DNA from: an uncultured Candidatus Saccharibacteria bacterium
GTDB taxonomy: Bacteria > Patescibacteriota > Minisyncoccia > Phycocordibacterales > PALSA-1337
Length of the DNA stretch: 36,012 nt
Reading direction: 5' to 3'
Assembly: GCA_964362725.1 (NCBI GenBank)
Contig: CAYIFO010000001.1
Location: 1 to 36,012 of the forward strand
Positions 3,311 to 34,932 of this stretch are shown here, in pieces; position 1 is the stretch's first letter; every line of letters starts with the position of its first letter. Both the position numbers and the translations under genes were made by a program. Below the pieces are notes generated by a model, which had not been told where the DNA came from, searched no databases, and worked only from the letters and a program-made list of their open reading frames with translations.

Positions 3311-4726
3311 ATGAATTTAGGAAAAAAAACCAAGATTGTCTGCACGATCGGACCGGCCACGGAAAGCCAGGAAAAGTTGGAAGCCCTTCAAAAAGCCGGC
3401 ATGAATGTGGCTAGGCTCAATTTCTCCCATGGTGATTTTGCCGAACACCAGAATCGGGTTGATAATATCCGGAAAGTTATGGAAAAAACTGGTTCAATCA
3501 TCGCCATAATCCAAGATTTGGGCGGACCAAAAATCCGCATAGGGACATTCAGGGACAAAGTTGTTAACCTGGTTAGGGGCAAGACTTTTATCCTGACCAC
3601 CGACGAGATCGAAGGTACCGAGGACAAAGTCCATATCAATTACCCCGCTTTGCCCAAAGAGGTCAAGCCGGGCATATTCATTATGCTTCAGGATGGGGCC
3701 ATGAAACTAGAGGTAGTTGAAGTCAAGGGTAATGACATAATCACCAAAGTTATTTCTGGCGGGCATTTGGCCGGCCGGAAGGGTGTCAATGTGCCTGGAG
3801 CCAATCTTTCGGTCAAGTCACTGACTGAAAAAGATCGCGAGGATGTCCAGTTTGGCATCAAAAACAAGGTGGATTTCGTAGCCCTTTCTTTTGTTCGCCA
3901 TTCGTCCGACATTAGGGAACTTCGTGAATTGTTGGACAAAGCCGGTTCCAAGGCCGGTATAATCGCCAAAATTGAGACGCCGGAGGCTCTGGCGGACATA
4001 GATGGCATAATCGAACAATCGGACGCCATAATGATAGCCAGGGGCGATCTGGCCATAGAGATACCGGCGGAAGAAGTGCCCTTAGTCCAAAAATTGATTA
4101 TTCACAAGTGTAATTCGGCGGGAAAACCGGTTATCACAGCCACGCAGATGTTGGAATCAATGGTCAAGAATCCGGTGCCGACGCGGGCCGAGGTTTCCGA
4201 TATCGCTAACGCGATCATTGATGGTACCGACGCGATCATGCTTTCCGAAGAAACGACCTTGGGTGATTTTCCGGTTGAGGCGGTCGAAGTAATGACCAAG
4301 GTCGCTTTGCGAGTTGAAAAAGAAGTATATACTCGGGACACTATAGCCGAATACGAAGAATCGCATGGTATTACCGATGTTGTTTCCCAGTCGACTGTTC
4401 GTGTTGCTCATAATATTGGAGCTTCGCTTATTGTCGCCTTGACTCGCAAAGGCAGAACTCCCCGAATGATATCTCGCTACCGTCCGGCCGAAATGGTCCT
4501 GGCTTTTTCCGATGAGAAGGCTGATCTAAACAAAATGATGCTTGTTTACGGTTGTTACCCATTCTTGGTGCCGACTTTCAAAACAACCGAGGAGATCATG
4601 GAAATAGTCCGACGGACGACCTTGGACAGTAAGTTTGTCAATAAAGGGGACAAGGTGGTTATCGTCGCCGGCATGCCTTTTGGCGGTTCCAATGAAACGA
4701 ATTTCATTTTAGTTGAGACGGTCTAG
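3311..4726 (+). CDS. pyk: Pyruvate kinase
   Basis: 471 aa with hallmark segments: KIVCTIGPA, MNVARLNFSHG, DLGGPKIR, ARGDL..EIP, ATQMLESM, MLSEETT. Confidence 0.95.
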   Translation: MNLGKKTKIVCTIGPATESQEKLEALQKAGMNVARLNFSHGDFAEHQNRVDNIRKVMEKTGSIIAIIQDLGGPKIRIGTFRDKVVNLVRGKTFILTTDEIEGTEDKVHINYPALPKEVKPGIFIMLQDGAMKLEVVEVKGNDIITKVISGGHLAGRKGVNVPGANLSVKSLTEKDREDVQFGIKNKVDFVALSFVRHSSDIRELRELLDKAGSKAGIIAKIETPEALADIDGIIEQSDAIMIARGDLAIEIPAEEVPLVQKLIIHKCNSAGKPVITATQMLESMVKNPVPTRAEVSDIANAIIDGTDAIMLSEETTLGDFPVEAVEVMTKVALRVEKEVYTRDTIAEYEESHGITDVVSQSTVRVAHNIGASLIVALTRKGRTPRMISRYRPAEMVLAFSDEKADLNKMMLVYGCYPFLVPTFKTTEEIMEIVRRTTLDSKFVNKGDKVVIVAGMPFGGSNETNFILVETV

Positions 4727-7433: not shown

Positions 7434-7820
7434 ATGTCGGCGCAAGATTATTTTAAAAGCAAAAGAATAGCGGTGGTGGGCTTGGGTCCAGAGGGTAACA
7501 TGGTCGAAGATGTCAAATTCCTGATCAAGGCAGGGGCCTTGGTCAGTGTTTACGACCTCAAGAGCGAGGCTAGGTTGAAGAGCCACCTGGTTCTTTTGCG
7601 CTCGCTGGGTCTTGCCAATCATGTCTGCGGTTCCATTCCAGCCGAGGATTTGATCGATATGGATCTCATCATCCTTTCCCATGAATATCCGCGCGATTCC
7701 TCTTTTCTCAAGGCTGTTGATGAAAAAAACAGGAGAATTGAACTCGATAAAACCAAGATTGTGGAAAAAAAAGAAAAGCCTATTCCCATCGAATACCCCG
7801 AAACACTATTTTTCAGGTGA
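7434..7820 (+). CDS. murD: UDP-N-acetylmuramoylalanine--D-glutamate ligase, N-terminal domain fragment ending at in-frame TGA 7818-7820
   Basis: Rossmann-like KRIAVVGLGPEG. The C-terminal ...ETLFFR aligns with the E. coli MurD segment (IELFCR) just before the P-loop. Confidence 0.75.
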   Translation: MSAQDYFKSKRIAVVGLGPEGNMVEDVKFLIKAGALVSVYDLKSEARLKSHLVLLRSLGLANHVCGSIPAEDLIDMDLIILSHEYPRDSSFLKAVDEKNRRIELDKTKIVEKKEKPIPIEYPETLFFR

Positions 7821-7829
7821 TCGCCTCCG

Positions 7830-8801
7830 GTGACGGTTATCGGGATAATGGGCCAGTGCGGTAAAAGCACGATCATCTCGATGCTCTCTCCGATGCTCGA
7901 GGTGGTTTGCTCCAAGACTGACAATCAGGGTTTTTTTGTTATCGATCCCGAGTCAGATAAAGGAATCATATCCAATTTGCGCAAAGTCAGGAGCGGTGAC
8001 ATCGTCCTCATGCGCCTACTTGGTCAGACGATGAAGGAACTTCATAGTATTCACATTAGTCCCCAGGTGGCAGTTTTCGCTTCGGAGCCGGCCAGAGAGG
8101 CTTACCATGATTCGCCTTTCGAGATTCTCAACTATCAGACATATAATAATTTTATAGTGGCTTCGGATGAGGTGATTGACGCGATTCGAAGTCAAAAGGT
8201 CCAACCCAAGGCCAAGATGCTACGAACAAAAATCTCGATCGTTCCTGAAACCTGGTCATTGATTAAGATTGATGGACATGATCGACAGAATGCAGCCCTA
8301 GCTTTCCAAACTGGTAAACTTTTTCGAGTTGATGATGATCTGGCCCGAGAAGTTCTGGTCAAATGGAAACCACTCAAAGGTCGTTTGGAGATGGTAAAAA
8401 AAGTCAGGGGAGTGGAGTATTACAATGACACGGCCTCAATCTGCCCTCTTTCAACGGAACAAGCTATCCGAATTTCCAGGGACAGGAATGTTATTCTGAT
8501 TTTCGGCGGGACGCGTAGCAGTCATGATTACAAGAATTTGTATTCTTTGTTGCCGGAATATGTGAAAATGGTCATTCTTCTGCCGGGTAGCGGAACGATC
8601 CATGAACGTCAGACTATCACCAAACTCAAAGATCTGAAAAGCATATCGGTTCCCTCGATCGAGGAGGCGGTTCTTCTGGCGGCCGAAAATGCCGGTAAAA
8701 ACGATAGGGTGGTCTTCAGTCCGGGCTTTGGAGCCAATGGTTTGGATAATTCAAGGAAGGAAAGAGGAGATAGGTTTGTAAAGGCCGTGCGGGGTCTTTA
8801 G
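7830..8801 (+). CDS. murD: MurD central and C-terminal domains, in the same frame as 7434..7820
   Basis: Begins VTVIGIMGQCGKST, the Mur ligase P-loop. Later Mur ligase segments follow (GRLE, YYNDTASICP). 7830-7434 is divisible by 3. Confidence 0.8.
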   Translation: MTVIGIMGQCGKSTIISMLSPMLEVVCSKTDNQGFFVIDPESDKGIISNLRKVRSGDIVLMRLLGQTMKELHSIHISPQVAVFASEPAREAYHDSPFEILNYQTYNNFIVASDEVIDAIRSQKVQPKAKMLRTKISIVPETWSLIKIDGHDRQNAALAFQTGKLFRVDDDLAREVLVKWKPLKGRLEMVKKVRGVEYYNDTASICPLSTEQAIRISRDRNVILIFGGTRSSHDYKNLYSLLPEYVKMVILLPGSGTIHERQTITKLKDLKSISVPSIEEAVLLAAENAGKNDRVVFSPGFGANGLDNSRKERGDRFVKAVRGL

Positions 8802-8820
8802 GGATGTGTCACATCCCTAA
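8798..8820. repeat. 23-nt perfect palindrome TTAGGGATGTG-T-CACATCCCTAA
   Basis: It contains the murD stop codon TAG (8799-8801) and, on the other strand, the stop codon of the PLP gene (CTA 8817-8819). The GGGATGTGTCACATCCC core recurs at 19735-19751, and a degenerate copy lies at 28251-28266. Confidence 0.85.
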
Positions 8821-14121: not shown

Positions 14122-14316
14122 AGAACTTGGTGAGTAATGTCTGTTTTGAGGCACGGAAAATTTTCTGCAGAAAATTTTCCTAATCCTCGGCGATTTTTGT
14201 GCCCTTCTTCGCCAAGGCTACGAAGGACACCTACTAGTTGGCCCTCCGTAGCTTTAGCGTAGGAGGCTCAAAAATCGCCTGCGGAGCCTCTCAACAGACA
14301 TTACTCACCAAGTTCT
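14122..14316. repeat. Composite palindromic element A: 24-bp closing stem, internal hairpins, and a nested roughly 65-nt insert
   Basis: Arms 14122-14145 and 14293-14316 are perfectly complementary. Inside is the 26-nt perfect palindrome GGAAAATTTTCTGCAGAAAATTTTCC (14155-14180). A 55-nt block and a 25-nt block are nearly identical to element C at 34784-34915. Confidence 0.85.
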
Positions 14317-15085
14317 AAAACCTTAGTCTTCTGATTTCCGTTTTACTTTTTTGAGCTCTTTGGACGAGTAAATCAACAGATTGATCATTACCTTCAGTCC
14401 AGCGTTGGGCGGTAATCGGTTGATTGATATCAGTGATTTCTATAGCACCTTGTCGGACTCCGGTGTTATAAAGACCGTCAGCGGGATAGGCGATGGAATG
14501 AGAGTAATGGATTTTGGCCGGAATCCCATTCAAGTAATCGACTTGATGAATAATCAAGATATGATCGCGGATCTTTTCCAAGCCACCATTGGTCATAGTT
14601 ATGATATCTCCAGGTCGAACCTGGGCAGAAGAGATTGTCTGGCTGTTTGAGTCATGAGCGAAGGTGGCAACATTGCAGTTTTCGGCCGGACGGAAAGAAC
14701 AGCGAATTTTACCAAGTAAGCCCGTACACTCGGGGAAGTTAAGATGTTTTTTTATAGAGTCATTGTTTGTGCTGTAACAGTGAGCGTTCAAGATATGATA
14801 AACAAAACCAGAACATTCAATGCCGAGATTGTTGTCAGTCATTATCTTTTTGAGATCATGATCGGTTAAGAGTTCCCTATTGATACGATTTTTGAGCAAA
14901 ATAGTTTCGACTTCGATCGCAATCTCTTCCGGGCTACCTTTGCCAATAAAAGCTCGTAGGGCCGCTCTGGATCCAGTTTTTTTGTTATTGAAATAGGGAA
15001 CAGAGCAAACGGCTTTGCCGATCTTGAAATTAAGATATTGGTTTATGACAGCCAAAGCTTGGTTAGAAAGATGTTTTTGTTCCAT
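14315..15085 (-). CDS. NlpC/P60-superfamily (papain-like Cys peptidase/amidase)-like protein
   Basis: A candidate catalytic Cys lies in GIECSGFVYHIL and a candidate His in PGDIITM....DHILIIHQV. The assignment rests on motifs only. Confidence 0.45.
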   Translation of the reverse strand: MEQKHLSNQALAVINQYLNFKIGKAVCSVPYFNNKKTGSRAALRAFIGKGSPEEIAIEVETILLKNRINRELLTDHDLKKIMTDNNLGIECSGFVYHILNAHCYSTNNDSIKKHLNFPECTGLLGKIRCSFRPAENCNVATFAHDSNSQTISSAQVRPGDIITMTNGGLEKIRDHILIIHQVDYLNGIPAKIHYSHSIAYPADGLYNTGVRQGAIEITDINQPITAQRWTEGNDQSVDLLVQRAQKSKTEIRRLRF

Positions 15086-16434: not shown

Positions 16435-16562
16435 AGCCGTAATCACAGGAATCATTCTTTGTGGCGCGCTTTGACTGCATAATACTTCTGCCTAAAGAAG
16501 AACAGTTATCTGGTTAGGCCGCTGGCAATGCGCCACAAAGAATGATTCCTGTGATTACGGCT
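16435..16562. repeat. Element B: 33-bp perfect inverted repeat with a 62-nt spacer
   Basis: AGCCGTAATCACAGGAATCATTCTTTGTGGCGC (16435-16467) has its exact reverse complement at 16530-16562. It lies between the divergent ATP-grasp and rsmI genes. Confidence 0.9.
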
Positions 16563-16603
16563 CCGCATTTGGCCAAGTAACATTGTTGTGTTACTGTATT
16601 TTC

Positions 16604-17344
16604 ATGACCACTTTTTCCGTGATCGGCACTCCTATCGGCAATCTCGAAGATATCACTCTGCGAGCTCTTAAGGTCCTGGCTGCAGCTGATCTTGTTCTTT
16701 GTGAAGATACCCGGACAACCAGAAAATTGCTGGAAAAATATGATATCAAGACCAAGACTCTCTCTTATCACGTGCACAGCAATCAAAATCGTTCAAAAGA
16801 GATTATTACTCTTCTCAAAGAAGGCAAAAATTTAGCCCTAGTTTCCGATGCGGGTACGCCTGGTATATCGGATCCTGGCATCGAATTGGTCGGGCAAATT
16901 AGAAGAGAATTGGAGGCAGAAATAAAAGACGGTTCGATTAAAATCGAAGTCATACCGGGACCTTCCGCTCTGACCGCTGCTCTTTCCATAGCCGGAGTTT
17001 CCGCCAGTCAATTTACTTTTTTGGGATTTTTGCCTCATAAGAAAGGTCGGGAAACTTTATTCAAGGAAATTGCTTTTTCAAAAAGGACAATGGTTTTTTA
17101 CGAATCAAGTCACCGGATAATGAAGACACTTGATTCATTGAATATACACAACAATGGTTCGGATAGCCTTACTTCAAAGAAAGTGACGGTTTGTCGTGAA
17201 TTGACTAAAATCTATGAAGAAGTGGTGAGCGGGAGTGCTTTGGTGGTTAAGGAATACTTTGAAAAAAATAGTGATAAAGTAAGAGGGGAGTTTGTGGTCA
17301 TTGTCGAGGCCTTTCTTCGCCAAGGCTACGAAGGGCAAGCCTGA
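16604..17344 (+). CDS. rsmI: 16S rRNA (cytidine1402-2'-O)-methyltransferase
   Basis: FSVIGTPIGNLEDITLRAL..L..ADLVLCEDTR.T.KLL is the RsmI signature. The start was trimmed to ATG 16604. The last roughly 10 codons and the stop lie in a repeat motif. Confidence 0.88.
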   Translation: MTTFSVIGTPIGNLEDITLRALKVLAAADLVLCEDTRTTRKLLEKYDIKTKTLSYHVHSNQNRSKEIITLLKEGKNLALVSDAGTPGISDPGIELVGQIRRELEAEIKDGSIKIEVIPGPSALTAALSIAGVSASQFTFLGFLPHKKGRETLFKEIAFSKRTMVFYESSHRIMKTLDSLNIHNNGSDSLTSKKVTVCRELTKIYEEVVSGSALVVKEYFEKNSDKVRGEFVVIVEAFLRQGYEGQA

Positions 17345-19731: not shown

Positions 19732-19754
19732 TCTGGGATGTGTCACATCCCAGA
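19732..19754. repeat. 23-nt perfect palindrome TCTGGGATGTG-T-CACATCCCAGA
   Basis: Same 17-nt core as 8801-8817. The flanking palindromic bases differ but stay complementary. Confidence 0.85.
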
Positions 19755-22941: not shown

Positions 22942-23970
22942 ATGAAAATCCTTATTGCATCAGGCATTTATCCACCCGATATCGGAGGACCGGCCCAATA
23001 TGCCAGGAATCTTTACGAAACATGGAAAAAACAAGGCCACGAGGTCAAGGTGGCGGCTTATCGCTGGGAAAGAGTTTTCCCGCCTCTTCTCCGGCATATT
23101 CTCTATCTTCTCAAGATCATTCGCAAAGGCTGGAATGCCGATCTTATCCTGGTACTTGATACTTGGTCGGCGGCCGTGCCGACAATGCTCGCTTGCCGGC
23201 TTATGGGCAAAAAATATCTTATTCGGACTGGAGGTGATTTTCTTTGGGAATCTTACACTGAAAGGACCGGAAACCTGGTTCTTTTCCGGAATTTTTACGA
23301 GGACAAATCCGTCCAGCTTTCTTTCAAGGAACGTTTGATTTTGCGATGGGGCGGACGTGCTCTTCGCCAAGCCAAGGCGGTAATATTTAGCACCGACTGG
23401 CAAAGAAAGATTTTTGAAAAAACTTATGGTTTGAATGCCGAGAAGAGTTTTCAGGTCGAAAATTTCTGCGGGTCACGATTGGACAAGATGGAACCGGAAA
23501 ATAGAACTTTCGTGGCCGGTACGCGGTCACTCAAATGGAAGAATATTGAGTTTTTGAAAGAGGTTTTCTATGAGGCCCGGTCTGTCGTTCAAGTCAAAAA
23601 TCTTGAACCAATCGATCTCGATTGTGGCAAGGCTGTCTATGACAGTTTTCTTGAAAAAATCCATCATTCTTATGCTGTTGTTTTGACCTCGCTCGGGGAT
23701 ATTAGCCCCAATATGATTTTTGACGCCATCAGAGCCGGTACGCCTTTTATTTTGACCAGGGAAAACGGCATAACCGAGAGAGTCAAAAATTGCGCGATTT
23801 TCGTTGATCCGTGCAACAAAAAAGATATAGCTGAAAAGATTATTTGGCTAGCCGATCCTTCGAATAGGGCCATTCAGGCCGGAAAAGTCAGGGAATTTGG
23901 ATGGATCCATACCTGGGAACAGATTGCCGATGAGATAGTCAAGATCTGGCAGAGGACCAAGAAAAATTGA
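22942..23970 (+). CDS. Glycosyltransferase-like protein (divergent GT-B)
   Basis: The N-terminal MKILIASGIYPPDIGGPAQYARNL is typical of GT4 enzymes. The C-terminal motif is degenerate. Confidence 0.55.
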   Translation: MKILIASGIYPPDIGGPAQYARNLYETWKKQGHEVKVAAYRWERVFPPLLRHILYLLKIIRKGWNADLILVLDTWSAAVPTMLACRLMGKKYLIRTGGDFLWESYTERTGNLVLFRNFYEDKSVQLSFKERLILRWGGRALRQAKAVIFSTDWQRKIFEKTYGLNAEKSFQVENFCGSRLDKMEPENRTFVAGTRSLKWKNIEFLKEVFYEARSVVQVKNLEPIDLDCGKAVYDSFLEKIHHSYAVVLTSLGDISPNMIFDAIRAGTPFILTRENGITERVKNCAIFVDPCNKKDIAEKIIWLADPSNRAIQAGKVREFGWIHTWEQIADEIVKIWQRTKKN

Positions 23971-23976
23971 TTCTCC

Positions 23977-25149
23977 ATGAAAAATAAAAGTTTACTCATG
24001 ATTTCAACCGATCGCGCCATCTTTGACGAGAAGAGCGATGTTCGCGCTCGTCAGATCGAATATGCTAAGGAATGGGAGGAAGTTCACATTGTTATTTTTT
24101 GTAAAGAAAATTCAGCACTCCTTGGCAGTCGTTCCTTCTCAACCACGATCGGCTCGGCTCGAAGAACCGAAAACTCGCCGAGCCGTCTCTTCTCGCGCCG
24201 CCGATTGGAGTATGATAATTCGCAATCCAGCGGCGCTCCGAAAGGGTTTCGAAAGAACGACTGCCAAGGAGTGCTTATCTCTGAAAATTGTTGGCTTTAT
24301 TCAACAGAATCTTTCTCAAAATTTCTTTTTCCTTTTGATGCTGTTCGTATAGGAAAGAATATTGTTGAAAATAATAAAATAACCAACATTACTTGCCAGG
24401 ATTCTTCTTTGACTGCTTATGCGGGTGTCTCTCTCAAAAGAAAATATAAGATCCCGTTGGAGATTCAAATTCATGAGGATTTGGGTAGTCCCAACTACGC
24501 TTACAATCTGACGAATAAAATTCGTTTATTTTTGGCCAATCATTACATTCCCAAGGCCGATAATGTTAGAGTCGTTTCTTTCCGGATAAAAAAATATGTT
24601 GAGGAATTGTTGGAGAAAAAGAGATTGAACAAAGATTCGGGTAAACCGGTCATTGAAACTCGCCCCATTTCGGTCGATCTTGAAAAAATAAGGAATTCGC
24701 CGACGATCGTCGATCTTTATCAGAAATACCGCCAGTTTGATAAAATAGTCCTCATGGCTTCACGCCTGGAAAAAGAAAAGAATGTCGAATTGGCAATCAA
24801 AGCCTGGAAAAAGGTCAATGAATCTTTTCCAAAGGCCGGTTTGCTTATTGTCGGGCGAGGTTCCAAAAGTGTCGCTCTACAGAGCCTTCCCGCTAGGGTA
24901 ACCCTAGCGGGATCGATAATCTTTGAAGATTGGGTTCCTAAACCAACCCTTTTTTCCTATTACAAGACGGCCGATCTTTTCTTGAACACTTCCTTGTTTG
25001 AAGGCTATGGTCTGACTTTGGTCGAAGCAGAAGCCGCTGGCTGTCCGATAGTTTCAACCGATGTTGGCATTGCCGGGGAAGTTGGGGCGAATATTACGAG
25101 CTTTGAACCAGATGATGTGGCTAATAAGATTATTCAGTCGCTCAAGTAG
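23977..25149 (+). CDS. Glycosyltransferase family 4 carrying an in-frame 59-codon palindromic-element insertion
   Basis: C-terminal motif: NTSLFEGYGLTLVEAEAAGCPIVSTDVG. Residues encoded by about 24113-24289 are Ser/Arg-rich and coincide with an inverted-repeat element. Confidence 0.75.
   Translation: MKNKSLLMISTDRAIFDEKSDVRARQIEYAKEWEEVHIVIFCKENSALLGSRSFSTTIGSARRTENSPSRLFSRRRLEYDNSQSSGAPKGFRKNDCQGVLISENCWLYSTESFSKFLFPFDAVRIGKNIVENNKITNITCQDSSLTAYAGVSLKRKYKIPLEIQIHEDLGSPNYAYNLTNKIRLFLANHYIPKADNVRVVSFRIKKYVEELLEKKRLNKDSGKPVIETRPISVDLEKIRNSPTIVDLYQKYRQFDKIVLMASRLEKEKNVELAIKAWKKVNESFPKAGLLIVGRGSKSVALQSLPARVTLAGSIIFEDWVPKPTLFSYYKTADLFLNTSLFEGYGLTLVEAEAAGCPIVSTDVGIAGEVGANITSFEPDDVANKIIQSLK
24113..24282. 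mobile_element. MITE-like multi-hairpin palindromic element inserted in-frame in a glycosyltransferase CDS
   Basis: 21-bp perfect terminal inverted repeats at 24114-24134 and 24255-24275. Three internal hairpins. Flanked by the direct repeat GAAAATT at 24106-24112 and 24283-24289. Element plus one repeat copy is 177 bp, or 59 codons. Confidence 0.55.
24888..24912. repeat. 25-nt perfect palindrome inside the glycosyltransferase CDS
   Basis: TCCCGCTAGGGT-A-ACCCTAGCGGGA, encoding ..LPARVTLAGS.. Confidence 0.85.
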
Positions 25150-25200
25150 TTGTTATTTTTCTCACCTAAATCCTAGCTCCCTAATCCGTATAGACTAAAA

Positions 25201-25656
25201 ATGATCGATACCATCAAAAAAACCTACGCTGTTCTGGATGAGAGACATCCAACAAAAGTCAAAATAGTCCGCTACCTTATTTCGGGTGGCATGGCGGCTT
25301 TTACCGACCTGCTTTTCCTTTATATTTTCACGGACATTTTCGGTATCTGGTATATTCTTTCGGCCATCGTCGCTTTCCTTCTTTCTTTTCTGGTCAGTTT
25401 TTCTATGCAGAAATACTGGACATTCAAGGATCATTCAAGTGATCGATTCCGCACCCAAGCCGTCACCTATCTCTTTGTGACCGTGACCAACTTGGGGATT
25501 AATACATTGGGTATTTTTCTTTTCGTCCAATATGTTCATTTGCATTACATGATCTCGCAAATTATCGTCAGCGCTTTTATTGCCATCGAAAGTTTCTTCG
25601 TCTATCAGGTGGTTTTCAAACAAAGAAACGACCTGACAATCACTGAAAACCCATGA
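25201..25656 (+). CDS. GtrA-family membrane protein (polyprenyl-phosphate-sugar flippase-like)
   Basis: 151 aa with 4 TM helices. RYLISGGMAAFTDLLFLYIF and SF.MQKYWTFK are typical of GtrA. Confidence 0.8.
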   Translation: MIDTIKKTYAVLDERHPTKVKIVRYLISGGMAAFTDLLFLYIFTDIFGIWYILSAIVAFLLSFLVSFSMQKYWTFKDHSSDRFRTQAVTYLFVTVTNLGINTLGIFLFVQYVHLHYMISQIIVSAFIAIESFFVYQVVFKQRNDLTITENP

Positions 25657-31149: not shown

Positions 31150-32190
31150 TTAGGCGAAGCATTTCCTGATCAAATTATCGGCCAAGATTTTGGATGTCAA
31201 ATTTTGTCTGTAAAATTCGTAACCATTTTTCGCCACTAGTTCCAAAATTTCCGGTCGATTTTTCAAAAAGAGTATTTTGTCAGCCAAGTCTCGCGGATCA
31301 CCTGGCTTGGAACAGAGGCAGGTCTCATCTTCCTTGAGCAATTCAAGAACGGCTTTGTTGCGAGCGGTCAGATAGGGTAGGCGCATGGCCAGACTCTCGA
31401 AGGATTTGCAGGGCAAGGTTCTCTCCAGACGGGGATGGTCAGCCATTTGACCCAAGCTTATATGTGAAGCCTGCATCTTTTTTCTCAATTCATCAATGGG
31501 TAATGAATGATTGATCATAACAATGTTTTTTGGCTTAAGTTCATCCATGAGCGTATTGACCAATCTATAAGAAAAACCGTGGCCTATGATAAGAAAAGCT
31601 ATATCAGAATCCTCTAAAATTTTGGCCACTTTTATGACCGTGTCAATGCCTGATTCGGGCAGAAAGCGCCCTCTGAAAAGCACGGTGAATTTTGAGTATT
31701 TGGAAACATTTGGTTCATAATAATATTCCTTTTCATTTAATCCGGACCAGGAAAGGATCAATTTATTTCTTTTAACCAACCAATTTCGGCCGATGTATTT
31801 GATTTGCGAGGGGCTTTCGAGTAGAACCAACGAAGCCAGGTGGAATGAGATAAAATCAATAAGCCACCACTTCATAGCCTCAAATGAAAAAGGACTGATG
31901 CCACGCGAAACGATGTTGCCTTCATACTGGGAAGAAGTAGCATTGTATATGATCCTATTTTTGGAAAATATTCTAGCTATTGGGACAAAAAACGGGGAAG
32001 TAAAGCCAACAAAGATTGCATCATATTTTACAACCTCTCTTTTCAGGTATTTGGCCAAATTGCTATATTTTTTCATTCCTGGAGAATTTTCCTCAAGTTC
32101 AATGACTTTGTGACCATTTTCCTTGAGTCCATCGATGATGTGTCTGTCGTGAGGAAAAATGTTTCGGGTGTTTATATAGAGAAATTTCAT
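31150..32190 (-). CDS. Glycosyltransferase-like protein (GT-B fold)
   Basis: The start was trimmed from GTG 32208 to ATG 32190 (MKFLYIN...). FRGRFLPESGIDTVIKVAKIL..DIAFLIIGHG is typical of the C-terminal Rossmann half. Confidence 0.55.
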   Translation of the reverse strand: MKFLYINTRNIFPHDRHIIDGLKENGHKVIELEENSPGMKKYSNLAKYLKREVVKYDAIFVGFTSPFFVPIARIFSKNRIIYNATSSQYEGNIVSRGISPFSFEAMKWWLIDFISFHLASLVLLESPSQIKYIGRNWLVKRNKLILSWSGLNEKEYYYEPNVSKYSKFTVLFRGRFLPESGIDTVIKVAKILEDSDIAFLIIGHGFSYRLVNTLMDELKPKNIVMINHSLPIDELRKKMQASHISLGQMADHPRLERTLPCKSFESLAMRLPYLTARNKAVLELLKEDETCLCSKPGDPRDLADKILFLKNRPEILELVAKNGYEFYRQNLTSKILADNLIRKCFA

Positions 32191-32198
32191 TGGCTTCA

Positions 32199-32223
32199 AG
32201 TATATCACGCGATTTGCTACAAT
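32199..32223. promoter_or_regulatory. Back-to-back -10 elements in a 39-bp divergent intergenic region
   Basis: The minus strand carries TGaTATACT (reverse complement of 32199-32207), 8 nt before ATG 32190. The plus strand carries TACAAT (32218-32223), 6 nt before ATG 32230. Confidence 0.45.
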
Positions 32224-32229
32224 CTACTC

Positions 32230-33396
32230 ATGACAAAACGGATGTTTCTCCTATTTCATGGCCGGTTTCCGGGAGAAAAAGCCGCCTCGCTTTTTACGGC
32301 CAAGAACGCCGAAGCTTTCGCCAAAGCCGGGCTCCAAGTCAAAGTTTTGGTGCCGAGACGAAAAGATGTCGAGCCCCAGACAGCTTTCGATTATTATGCG
32401 ATTTCCAAGAATTTTGAAATTGTGGAATTGCCGACTACCGACTTCTTTGCTCTGAAAATCCCCAAGCGCTTGGCTTTTCTTGTGAGCTTTATCGCATTTT
32501 CTCTGGCTTGTTTTTATTATCTGCGCCGACAATCACCTGATAAGGATGATCTTGCCTATTCAAACGAATCTTTACCTCTTTGGGCGGCTTCTTTTGCCGG
32601 TCTCAGTACTTTTTATGAAATGCATGATTTTCCCGAAAGCAAGCTCGGTCTCTTCGGATTGTTACTTAAAAGGTTTGATTGGATTTTGATTCATAACCGC
32701 TGGAAAGTCCAAGAATTCAAGAAGATTTTTCCCAAAATTAAAGCTAAGATTTTGTGCGAGCCCAATGCTGTCGATATAAAAGAATTTGATATCCAGATTT
32801 CGAAAGAAGAAGCACGAGATCGGTTGGGTCTTGATGCTGGTAATCGCGGCAAACAAATAGCCGTCTACACAGGCCATCTTTTTGGTTGGAAAGGTGTCGA
32901 TACGTTGGCTAAAGCAGCTGAAATTTTGGGCAACGATTGTTTGGTCATTTTTGTAGGCGGAACGGAAAAAGATGTTATTGCATTCAAGAAAAAATACGGA
33001 CAAGTTCCAAATATCCTGATAGTCGGTCACAAGCTACACAAAGAGATTCCGATCTGGCAAAAGGCGGCTGATGTTTTGATCTTGCCCAATACGGCCAAGG
33101 AGGCAATTTCTACCTTTTACACCTCGCCAATGAAACTCTACGAATACATGGCCAGCCGAAGGCCGATAGTGGCTTCGGATATCCCTTCGGTTCGAGAGAT
33201 TGTTGATGAAACTTGCGCTGTCCTAGTCAAGCCGGATGAGCCAGAGGTACTTGCTATTGCCATTAGATCCGTGTTAGAGAGGTCGGACCTCTCTAACACA
33301 AAACTGATCGATATGGCGATGTCGCGAGCTCATTTGCGGACTTGGGACAGAAGAGCAGATAATATTATTGCTTTTATGAAAAACAATGCTCAATAA
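32230..33396 (+). CDS. Glycosyltransferase family 4
   Basis: GHLFGWKGVDTL and SPMKLYEYMASRRPIVASDIPSVREIV. The start was trimmed to ATG 32230. Confidence 0.75.
   Translation: MTKRMFLLFHGRFPGEKAASLFTAKNAEAFAKAGLQVKVLVPRRKDVEPQTAFDYYAISKNFEIVELPTTDFFALKIPKRLAFLVSFIAFSLACFYYLRRQSPDKDDLAYSNESLPLWAASFAGLSTFYEMHDFPESKLGLFGLLLKRFDWILIHNRWKVQEFKKIFPKIKAKILCEPNAVDIKEFDIQISKEEARDRLGLDAGNRGKQIAVYTGHLFGWKGVDTLAKAAEILGNDCLVIFVGGTEKDVIAFKKKYGQVPNILIVGHKLHKEIPIWQKAADVLILPNTAKEAISTFYTSPMKLYEYMASRRPIVASDIPSVREIVDETCAVLVKPDEPEVLAIAIRSVLERSDLSNTKLIDMAMSRAHLRTWDRRADNIIAFMKNNAQ
33271..33299. repeat. 29-nt perfect palindrome inside a CDS
   Basis: GTGTTAGAGAGGTC-G-GACCTCTCTAACAC, encoding VLERSDLSNT. Its 15-nt core is identical to 28280-28294. 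Confidence 0.9.
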
Positions 33397-34783
33397 TCAA
33401 AAATTTAACACTTTTTGTCTCAATCACCGCTTGGAAATCAGTATTTTTCTTTTGGCTTTGGTTGTACGAATCGCACTTTTCGCTATCAATTTCCAGGCGG
33501 CTGGCTCTGATTTGTTGACTGCTATCCATGGTGACGATGGCTATTATGAAATCAGTCAAGGTTTGCTTTCAGGCCATGGTTTTACTGGTTCGGTCGAGGA
33601 ACCTTTTAGTCCCAATCCTTTGAGGCCACCGCTCTGGCCGGCTATGATCGCCGGATTAGTTTATATCTTTGGTTCATATTGGGCTGTGGCGATTTTTGAA
33701 CTGATTATTGCCAGTCTAGTTTCGGTTTTGGGCATGAAAATAGCTTCTGGTCTTTTTGATCGAAAACGATTGACTGTTCTGGTTGGCATATTTTTGGCTA
33801 TCGAACCGTATGGTGTTTTCCTATCGACCAATATGTATTCGGAAACGATATTCACTTTTCTTTTTCTGGCATTTTTTGTCTTTGTGATCAGGTATTGTAA
33901 GAATGCCAGTTTACGAAACGCTGCCTGGATGGCGATGTTTTTGGGACTTTCTATTTTGGCCAAGGCCACGGTCCAATATTTTCCATTTATCATTCCATTC
34001 TTCATGTTGTACATTGGCAGGAATAATCTGACGAAAAGTGTTTGGCGGAATATCTTTGTTTTCGTCCTGATTATTTTGGCTCTCCTCGGACCATGGCTTT
34101 ACCGCAATTATCGCGAATTTGGAGTTTGGGGGATGAGTGCCCAACCGGCTTTCAATCTTTTTGTTTACTTGGTACCGACGGCTTTGTCGATCGACAATGG
34201 TACCAATTTTGCCGTGGAGCTGGATAATTTTGTCTATAAAAAGGGTATTGATGTCAATTCGATCAACTTATCTAATTCTGATTATTATTCCAGCCAAGCT
34301 CTGACCGTCCTTCAAGATCACAAGCTGGCTCTGGTCAAATCGTTTGGAACGACTATGGTGACATTTTTCACCCATGATGGAATGTTATCGGTCCTGGCCC
34401 ATACTGGTGTAACTTTTCCCAATAATTTGAGTCAGCCAGCTCTTTCTCTGCTTCTCAATGATCCCGGCAAACTGGTTGATATAATTGCCGGTTATATTGC
34501 CTCGCCGGCTGTCCTCATCCTTGTTATTCGATTGGTCTGGATCTGCATCACATCCCTCTTCTTTATCGGGATTTGGAAAGCTTGGTCAAAAAAGGAAATC
34601 AATTTGCCGGCTTTAACGGCTCTTCTTATCATTCTTTATTTTGCTTTGACTACAACTATAAACGGTCTGGGGGTCAATGCTAGGTTCAGAACGCCAGTAA
34701 ATATTTTTATTTTTTCCTTTGCTCTTTATGGATTGTTTAGCTTTGGGTTTGTTAGAAAATTGAAAAGGAATCAGGAGCAATAA
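33386..34783 (+). CDS. GT-C fold membrane glycosyltransferase (ArnT/PMT, GT39/GT83-like)
   Basis: 465 aa with 10 or more TM helices. An early extracytoplasmic-loop DD motif (HGDDGYYE) is typical of GT-C enzymes. Confidence 0.55.
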   Translation: MLNNQKFNTFCLNHRLEISIFLLALVVRIALFAINFQAAGSDLLTAIHGDDGYYEISQGLLSGHGFTGSVEEPFSPNPLRPPLWPAMIAGLVYIFGSYWAVAIFELIIASLVSVLGMKIASGLFDRKRLTVLVGIFLAIEPYGVFLSTNMYSETIFTFLFLAFFVFVIRYCKNASLRNAAWMAMFLGLSILAKATVQYFPFIIPFFMLYIGRNNLTKSVWRNIFVFVLIILALLGPWLYRNYREFGVWGMSAQPAFNLFVYLVPTALSIDNGTNFAVELDNFVYKKGIDVNSINLSNSDYYSSQALTVLQDHKLALVKSFGTTMVTFFTHDGMLSVLAHTGVTFPNNLSQPALSLLLNDPGKLVDIIAGYIASPAVLILVIRLVWICITSLFFIGIWKAWSKKEINLPALTALLIILYFALTTTINGLGVNARFRTPVNIFIFSFALYGLFSFGFVRKLKRNQEQ

Positions 34784-34915
34784 CTCAGATTGGTAAGTAA
34801 TGTCTTTTTCGAGGCACGGAAAATTTTCTGCAGAAAATTTCCCTAATCCTCGGCGATTTTTGTGCTCAAAAATCGCCTGCGGAGCCTCTAAAAAAACATT
34901 ACTTACCAATCTGAG
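34784..34915. repeat. Palindromic element C, the un-nested relative of element A
   Basis: 20-bp perfect arms at 34784-34803 and 34896-34915, extendable to about 36 bp with 2 mismatches. The core is 54/55 and 25/25 identical to element A. It starts immediately after stop codon TAA 34781-34783. Confidence 0.88.
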
Positions 34916-34932
34916 TGCGCAAGCTTTTCTTT

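Follow-up and report, generated by a model that had tools for sequence, protein, structure and literature searches.

An in-frame palindromic element in a length-variable loop of a patescibacterial GT4 glycosyltransferase gene

We examined a 36,012-nt stretch of DNA (hereafter, the window) from an uncultured Candidatus Saccharibacteria bacterium of the Patescibacteriota (contig CAYIFO010000001.1 of assembly GCA_964362725.1, positions 1 to 36,012), in which a gene for a GT4 glycosyltransferase contains a palindromic, hairpin-forming element. The gene is clustered with genes for glycosyltransferases, GtrA and PMT_2; its coordinates and those of the other features discussed below are collected in Table 1. 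The GT4 protein, whose public annotation begins at M8, matches the Pfam families Glycos_transf_1 and Glyco_trans_1_4. It has 502 homologues, the best of which are 51–65% identical to it outside the insert, and those that carry a name belong to Patescibacteria (Taylorbacteria, Parcubacteria, Paceibacterota). AlphaFold, given an alignment of 120 sequences, modelled the protein with a mean predicted local distance difference test score (pLDDT) of 88.5 and a predicted template modelling score (pTM) of 0.84. The best Foldseek matches of this model were BshA, MshA and PimB', and other GT-B enzymes were matched as well.

The structure of the element is far beyond chance. Its ends form an inverted repeat that is perfect over 21 nt (24114–24134 and 24255–24275), as an earlier reading made from the sequence alone (the sequence-only reading) had reported, and that extends to 31 nt at 90% complementarity (24114–24144 and 24245–24275). 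The arm 21-mer occurs at just these two sites in the window, with 0 occurrences expected in 100 shuffles. Folded as RNA, the element reaches -91.2 kcal/mol on the plus strand (z = -9.9) and -102.4 kcal/mol on the minus strand (z = -9.7); folded as DNA, it has a z-score of -9.2. In each of these three cases, 0 of 200 shuffled sequences were as stable. The element has a GC content of 57%, above that of the gene (43%) and of the window (44%). The sequence-only reading had described three internal hairpins and a cloverleaf shape. All three hairpin sequences are present where it had placed them, but the third, CGAAAgggTTTCG at 24239–24251, overlaps the right arm on its inner side and is absent from the minimum-energy fold. 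The element is therefore a three-way junction, made of a long stem and two hairpins, and not a four-arm cloverleaf.

Table 1 Coordinates of the palindromic element, its host gene and comparable features in the window
Feature	Coordinates	Strand	Remarks
GT4 (GT-B fold) glycosyltransferase gene, host of the element	23977..25149	+	Open reading frame (ORF) of 390 aa; assigned from Pfam, homologues, AlphaFold and Foldseek
Palindromic element, bounded by its inverted repeat	24114..24275		162 nt = 54 codons; 57% GC; three-way junction
Left arm	24114..24144		Outer 21 nt (24114–24134) pair perfectly with the right arm
Right arm	24245..24275		Last 8 nt, GGAGTGCT, encode G-V-L; V-L lies on predicted beta-strand 99–102, found in every homologue
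Internal hairpin A	24147..24187		Perfect 9-bp core CGGCTCGGC / GCCGAGCCG at 24150–58 / 24177–85
Internal hairpin B	24195..24236		GCGCCGC-C-GATTG ... CAATC-CA-GCGGCGC, paired 24195–24207 / 24223–24236; population single-nucleotide polymorphism (SNP) at 24209
Left GAAAATT copy	24106..24112	+	Codons E-N-S; 1 nt from the inverted repeat
Right GAAAATT copy	24283..24289	+	Codons E-N-C; belongs to the conserved motif [ILV]-[SA]-x-N-C-W; inverted repeat 7 nt away
Palindrome TCCCGCTAGGGT-A-ACCCTAGCGGGA	24888..24912		Perfect, 12+1+12; in the second variable loop of the host GT4 gene
Sister long-stem element	14122..14316		195 nt; intergenic; overlaps the TAG stop of ORF 14315..15085(-); carries a 65-nt nested insert
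Sister long-stem element	34783..34916		134 nt; begins on the stop codon of ORF 33386..34783
Third type of long-stem element	16435..16562		Perfect 33-bp arms; 62-nt interior; between divergent genes

As the sequence-only reading had noted, the ORF of the host gene runs through the element without a stop codon. Three of the six frames of the element (+0, +1 and -2) are stop-free, so that the open frame is unremarkable in itself: a 162-nt insert entering in random phase and orientation would keep the ORF open about half the time. A length that is a multiple of three, together with selection on the gene, explains the open frame, and nothing further is needed.

The protein segment that carries the insert is one whose length varies widely in the family. 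We measured this loop as the stretch between F41 and N104 in 120 proteins, namely the window protein and 119 homologues. Among the homologues, the loop ranges from 11 to 89 residues, with a mode of 12 (27 proteins); in the window protein it has 62 residues and is the fourth longest of the 120. Thus, the insert sits in a surface loop that by its nature admits differences in length. In the AlphaFold model, residues 52–93 are the sole segment with a pLDDT below 50, and this segment sits between a strand (residues 35–40) and a beta-hairpin (99–102 and 105–109). The length variation among homologues, and a model that leaves the insert disordered while the rest is confident, both agree with the earlier suggestion that the insert adds a loop.

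The limits of the insertion had been drawn differently in the sequence-only reading, which took the direct repeat GAAAATT for a 7-bp target-site duplication around a 170-nt element, 177 nt with one copy of the repeat, and asked whether homologues join FCKEN directly to CWLYS. The two GAAAATT copies do exist, but the right one belongs to conserved coding sequence. Position -6 before N104 is E in 84 of the 119 homologues; position -3 before NCW is I, L or V, and position -2 is S, A or G, each in 118 of the 120 proteins. The window sequence G-V-L-I-S-E-N-C-W fits this family pattern, and its I-S-E-N is encoded by TATCTCT followed by the right GAAAATT copy. Since I-S-E-N matches the conserved pattern, these nucleotides are ancestral gene sequence, neither element nor duplication. 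Cutting out 177 nt (59 codons) would leave a loop of 3 residues and remove a beta-strand common to every homologue, whereas none of the 119 homologues has fewer than 11 residues between F41 and N104; neither the proposed boundaries nor the direct junction agrees with this alignment. Cutting out the 162 nt (54 codons) of the inverted repeat would leave 8 residues, still under the family minimum of 11. This short remainder, and the position of G-V-L on the conserved strand, lead us to infer that the insertion did not originally end where the inverted repeat now ends. A few codons may have been exchanged for compatible ones upon insertion, or the stem may have grown into the flanking codons.

The element persists in a natural population. 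The arm 19-mer had ten matches in JGI metagenomes, nine of which were single-arm chance matches or matches to homologous genes. A contig found with this 19-mer, L016, carries both arms and is 100% identical to window positions 23953–25540 (1588 nt). Further contigs were found by exact look-up of the proteins encoded next to the element, and they come from two replicate assemblies of one groundwater sample (ENA ERZ1292629 and ERZ1292632). Their contig names contain Hain_H43_01um, suggestive of well H43 at the Hainich groundwater site and of a 0.1 um fraction. One contig of the second replicate assembly, L020, covers the whole element with one SNP, 24209 A>G, which changes Glu to Gly and falls in hairpin B. 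Because L020 spans the element with this single difference, the element is fixed in at least two slightly different strains. An artefact of assembly or amplification, in the form of a chimeric inverted duplication, might be suspected from the low coverage (3–4x) of the replicate assemblies and from the breakage of their contigs near the host gene. However, the 36-kb contig and L016 are identical, L020 from the second replicate spans the element with one SNP, and the interior of the element is not a copy of flanking sequence. The element is carried by three assemblies of the same groundwater population, so that it is not an artefact, and we regard this explanation as effectively refuted. As a separate observation on the host gene, window positions 24538–24663 differ from contig L018 of the second replicate assembly at 14 of 126 nt, while the remaining approximately 1,880 nt of L018 are identical. 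The codon changes comprise 6 synonymous and 7 non-synonymous ones and affect residues 188–229 in the interdomain region; this patch looks recombined or strain-mosaic.

Three comparable elements, alike in architecture, occur elsewhere in the window. The sister elements at 14122–14316 and 34783–34916 form one family, their cores sharing 95% identity across 76 nt, whereas the third type at 16435–16562 is unrelated in sequence to the others. The stems of the two sister copies differ by compensated changes (A/G on one arm with T/C on the other, and T/G with A/C) and by a compensated 2-bp indel (AC in one arm matched by GT in the other), which suggests arm-to-arm homogenisation or selection for the stem. 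The copy at 14122–14316 has itself received an insert of 65 nt (14203–14267), placed precisely at a hairpin apex; in the other copy, which represents the empty site, this hairpin is uninterrupted. This nested insert is flanked by GC/GC and has imperfect terminal repeats of approximately 9 nt; 22 nt of it recur exactly at 17313–17334, at the 3′ end of an RsmI-like ORF (16583..17344), where they encode part of the C-terminal tail (..EAFLRQGYEGQA). In view of the sister family and the nested insert, this genome has multi-copy structured elements, insertion events and homogenisation between arms. In viral contigs, no match to the sister-element core was present.

The window is also rich in palindromes: perfect inverted repeats of 10 bp or more number 26, as compared with 2–10 in shuffled sequences. 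One of the perfect palindromes (24888–24912) falls in the second variable loop of the host GT4 gene itself. This loop has 20 residues, the modal length, as in 89 of 120 homologues; the conserved L-A is encoded by the right arm of the palindrome, and the left arm seems to have been overwritten. The palindrome is thus a length-neutral one, of the kind made by quasi-palindrome template switching (PMC7202029).

Orthologues of the GT4 gene carry structured DNA in the same loop. The orthologue P0072 (contig L004, 3165–3250) has a different palindromic dimer there, with 31-nt arms each containing a small hairpin (z = -5.5). The description of repetitive extragenic palindromic (REP) sequences and REPINs, an imperfectly palindromic unit of 20–40 nt and its mobile inverted dimer, fits this insert (TGTCATTCCCGCGAAAGCGGGAATCC..), which is translated as VIPAKAGIQ...LDPRLRGGD. 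A 23-mer from the dimer arm has 108 exact matches in IMG/VR, and the unit belongs to a widespread REP-like family; we take it to correspond to the dRS3 repeat. The repeat unit of this dimer is also found upstream of pilE in Neisseria gonorrhoeae (PMC7593972). Rfam gave sub-threshold matches of the dimer to Wolbachia WsnRNA46 and Francisella FtrB. When the long inserts in this first loop were folded for five orthologues, three (L001, L004 and L005) had z-scores of about -4.1 and two (L002 and L003) did not fold in this way; control windows from the rest of the orthologue genes had a mean z of -0.56 (SD 1.3). The second variable loop of L004 contains a perfect 16-nt palindrome, TCCGCCAGCTGGCGGA, flanked by GGCTC/GAGCC (3909–3957). 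The second variable loop of L004, P0100, P0035, P0081 and P0059 shows a recurring insert, GSNGGPPAGGEPQA or GSNGWNEPQA, and in L004 it is the DNA of this insert that contains TCCGCCAGCTGGCGGA.

On balance, we lean towards the interpretation that the element is an insertion which behaves like a Rickettsia palindromic element (RPE), or like an intragenic REP or a miniature transposable element with inverted repeats (MITE), that it is one of several long-stem elements in this genome, and that it brought a GC-rich segment into a permissive loop. In this scheme, 162 nt of GC-rich, hairpin-forming DNA, the core of which would be foreign to the gene, entered the hypervariable loop between strand beta2 (residues 35–40) and the beta-hairpin 99–109 of the N-terminal Rossmann domain. 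The reading frame survived because the insert length is divisible by three and stops are lacking in half of the six frames. The element would then be translated as a disordered loop of approximately 50 residues rich in Ser and Arg, which the enzyme probably tolerates, since the same loop spans 11–89 residues among homologues. Arm-to-arm template switching, that is, quasi-palindrome correction, would keep the outer stem perfect and probably extended it into flanking codons; in that case, the original boundaries would not coincide with the ends of the inverted repeat, and a search for a target-site duplication would be bound to find none. Template switching at quasi-palindromes is well established as a mechanism (PMC7202029). 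We favour such homogenisation and extension of the arms because of the compensated sister stems, the 8-residue remainder, the conserved strand at the end of the right arm and the palindrome in the second loop. When transcribed, the stem (21 bp perfect, with about 28 of 31 positions paired) would be a good substrate for RNase III, in which case the insert would more probably dampen expression of the host gene than add a function. If the element has an effect at all, reduced expression seems the likeliest one.

Several results weigh against an insertion of this kind. No second copy was found in the window (BLAST with 7-nt words), in 185,579 GTDB species-representative genomes, a set from which the host genome is absent, in JGI metagenomes, or by blastn against plasmids and phages. 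The arm 19-mer had two single-arm chance matches in the GTDB representatives, one in Streptomyces and the other in an acidobacterium. An exhaustive phmmer search with the translated 55-aa insert against 1.84 billion protein representatives gave no second copy either, returning only the parent protein and P0121. The sequence-only reading had named the lack of other copies and of empty sites as counting against it; the data searched contain neither, which weighs less because they do not include the host genome beyond this contig. No transposase was found among the 30 ORFs scanned in the window, nor were a RAYT (the transposase associated with REPs), an IS110-type gene or a reverse transcriptase. 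No direct repeat of 1–9 nt abuts the inverted repeat, which is separated from the left GAAAATT copy by 1 nt and from the right one by 7 nt. A shared 7-mer or longer repeat occurs in flanks at this spacing at 0.73% of window positions (p about 0.007), so that the GAAAATT pair is improbable by chance, and the favoured model leaves it unexplained. Finally, exact look-up of neighbouring proteins gave only contigs that carry the element or are broken beside it, and no empty site; with the closest orthologue sharing no more than some 65% identity, none is available. Mobility of the element is, therefore, possible but not demonstrated.

Other searches bore on the identity of the element. P0121, the one other sequence returned by phmmer, was rejected as a relative of the insert: its 1029 aa result from spurious translation of a long tandem repeat (..GTTIGARQRAERRTPLLL..) and were matched in 17 weak stretches, and it is probably not a real protein. 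The three open frames of the element, concatenated and compared with proteins, gave 543 candidates, none at E <= 1, and two matches of a hairpin A 20-mer in viral contigs were chance matches in high-GC phage genes. Rfam 15 gave no credible match at E <= 10 in positions 23900–24500, and only two tRNAs reach the gathering score in the window; ARAGORN detected no tRNA-like gene at the element. The architecture superficially resembles that of a retron non-coding RNA (msr-msd), but the 30 scanned ORFs contain no reverse transcriptase domain. An integron attC site was rejected for want of an integrase, and a fragment of an rRNA gene because neither the small-subunit (SSU) nor the large-subunit (LSU) rRNA was matched. 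An origin of transfer (oriT) was considered in view of a TraG/VirD4-like gene 2.3 kb upstream, but this gene is found in synteny at orthologous loci without the element too.

The main rival to an insertion, which we hold to be somewhat unlikely, is that the element was never mobile and arose in place, through repeated template switches during replication that copied nearby sequence in reverse complement and perfected imperfect repeats within the permissive loop. Template switching can create hairpins de novo (bioRxiv 10.1101/2023.04.19.537475; PMC7202029). The status of the element as a singleton in every search and the lack of an abutting target-site duplication would fit such an origin, as would the richness of the window in perfect inverted repeats, the palindrome in the second loop with its unchanged length and seemingly overwritten left arm, the compensation of sister-stem changes on the opposite arm, and the coincidence of the outer right arm with a required beta-strand. 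However, the 57% GC of the core (59% in its richest 100-nt window) would be hard to obtain by local copying from a gene with approximately 40–43%, and for the loop to grow by about 50 codons net, many events would be required. Also, a genuine multi-copy repeat occupies the same loop in an orthologue, and the genome itself holds at least one element family with two copies, together with a nested insertion. A broader proposal, which we consider unlikely, is that a hairpin-centred process repeatedly seeds disordered loops in Patescibacterial genomes: small structured elements would land at the apexes of hairpins or the centres of palindromes, template switching would homogenise their stems and extend them into the flanks, and the stem of the present element would already have overwritten adjacent codons. 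The presence of palindromic DNA in both variable loops of GT4 genes from several independent lineages is consistent with this proposal, and so are the nested insert at the apex of the sister element and the length-neutral palindrome in the second loop. These observations hint at hairpin DNA and template switching as a general source of loop expansion in this group, but do not establish it.

The two remaining explanations place the meaning of the element in its RNA or DNA structure. One of them, in our judgement quite improbable, is that the structure has been selected, as an RNase III processing or decay site that tunes the gene within a glycosyltransferase operon, or as an antisense small RNA, with the coding capacity being incidental. 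The fold is extremely stable on both strands, and two strain variants, which differ elsewhere in the gene, have both kept the element with a single SNP in it. Repeats of the Correia and ERIC types undergo processing once transcribed. The sister elements, moreover, lie directly on stop codons, where REP-type RNA elements act (PMC3733652). Against selection for a functional structure, the element matches no Rfam family at any threshold and has no terminator and no excess promoter signal; no orthologue has a homologous structure, so that there is no conservation or covariation, and the lone SNP is uninformative. The other explanation, an intron-like intervening sequence that is removed from the RNA and is missing from the mature protein, was brought up in the sequence-only reading and draws on the pairing of the 5′ and 3′ ends in a long stem, which resembles the rRNA intervening sequences excised by RNase III. 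In bacteria, however, such RNase III excision is not followed by ligation, and the element gave no match to a group I or group II intron, a ribozyme or any other Rfam family, its 162 nt being too small for a self-splicing intron. An open frame and a length divisible by three are what selection on translation would be expected to produce, and precise removal would leave a loop shorter than that of any homologue. We therefore regard removal from the RNA as very improbable.

Several known systems invite comparison with the favoured reading, an insertion of mobile-element type. RPEs lie in frame within ordinary enzyme genes and consist of about 150 bp with a long hairpin, and the peptide that they add is compatible with the protein fold (PMC10969869). 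The element described here resembles them in its size (162 nt), its 31-nt arms and the stability of its fold (z = -9.9), and in its in-frame position within an intact ORF, in a hypervariable loop that is disordered in an otherwise confident model. By contrast, RPEs form multi-copy families with conserved peptides in Rickettsia, whereas the present element has one known copy and comes from Patescibacteria, and nothing related to RPEs was seen in Rfam. The RPE-like behaviour proposed in the sequence-only reading thus stands as regards a palindromic, in-frame insert in a length-variable, disordered loop, but not as regards mobility, as the searched data contain no other copy and no empty site. 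REPs, together with REPIN-like dimers and the dRS3 units of Neisseria, lie mostly after stop codons and sometimes inside ORFs, where they encode 20–30 extra residues (PMC3733652). The REP-type dimer in the same loop of P0072 and the overlap of the sister elements with stop codons recall these sequences. Nevertheless, the element cannot be filed as a REP or REPIN, since its arms are not hairpin units; it is also larger, has a structured interior of 100 nt, and has no RAYT or IS110-type gene in the window. Bacterial MITEs (Correia/NEMIS, ERIC, QMITE1/2) measure 100–300 bp, have terminal inverted repeats, are occasionally fused in frame with ORFs and form hairpins in transcripts (PMC10969869, PMC5896051). 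In size, in its terminal inverted repeats and in its lack of coding capacity of its own, the element is MITE-like, but it cannot be filed as a MITE, since we searched for an abutting target-site duplication and found none; the searches, limited to this contig for the host genome, gave no other copies and no parent insertion sequence. Quasi-palindrome mutagenesis accounts for perfect arms, compensated changes and length-neutral palindromes (PMC7202029), but it is a mutational process rather than an element family, and alone it leaves the GC-rich 100-nt core unexplained. In behaviour, Rickettsia RPEs and intragenic REP dimers are the closest systems, and the element represents a known phenomenon in a new lineage. 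We found no description of such palindromic inserts in Patescibacteria in the literature.

The window holds some further features apart from those discussed above. An inverted repeat at 95–179, with 34-nt arms of 82% complementarity, lies just upstream of genes for tRNA-Leu and tRNA-Ile. A perfect 14+1+14 palindrome (33271–33299), within a wider imperfect repeat (33253–33317), falls in the part of another GT4 gene (32110..33396) that encodes the C-terminal region. Two perfect 11+1+11 palindromes, at 8798–8820 and 19732–19754, share the core GGGATGTG-n-CACATCCC; the former lies between convergent genes and has a TAG stop in each arm, and the latter lies in the 5′ part of a TraG/VirD4-like ORF. 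Adjacent ORFs at 7434–7820 and 7830–8801 encode a MurD-like N-terminal domain and a Mur ligase C-terminal domain, respectively, and may represent a split or frameshifted Mur ligase gene.

The finding opens no new mechanism, and its key claim, that of mobility, is unproven. Inserts of this kind inflate protein lengths and yield spurious "novel" segments in catalogues of metagenomic proteins. The genomes of Patescibacteria are thought to be poor in repeats. If our reading is true, the survival of selfish or structured palindromic DNA within coding genes, familiar from Rickettsia RPEs and intragenic REPs, would extend to these ultra-small, reduced genomes, and such DNA would be a concrete source of the long, low-complexity loop insertions that lengthen many proteins of this group in comparison with their homologues.

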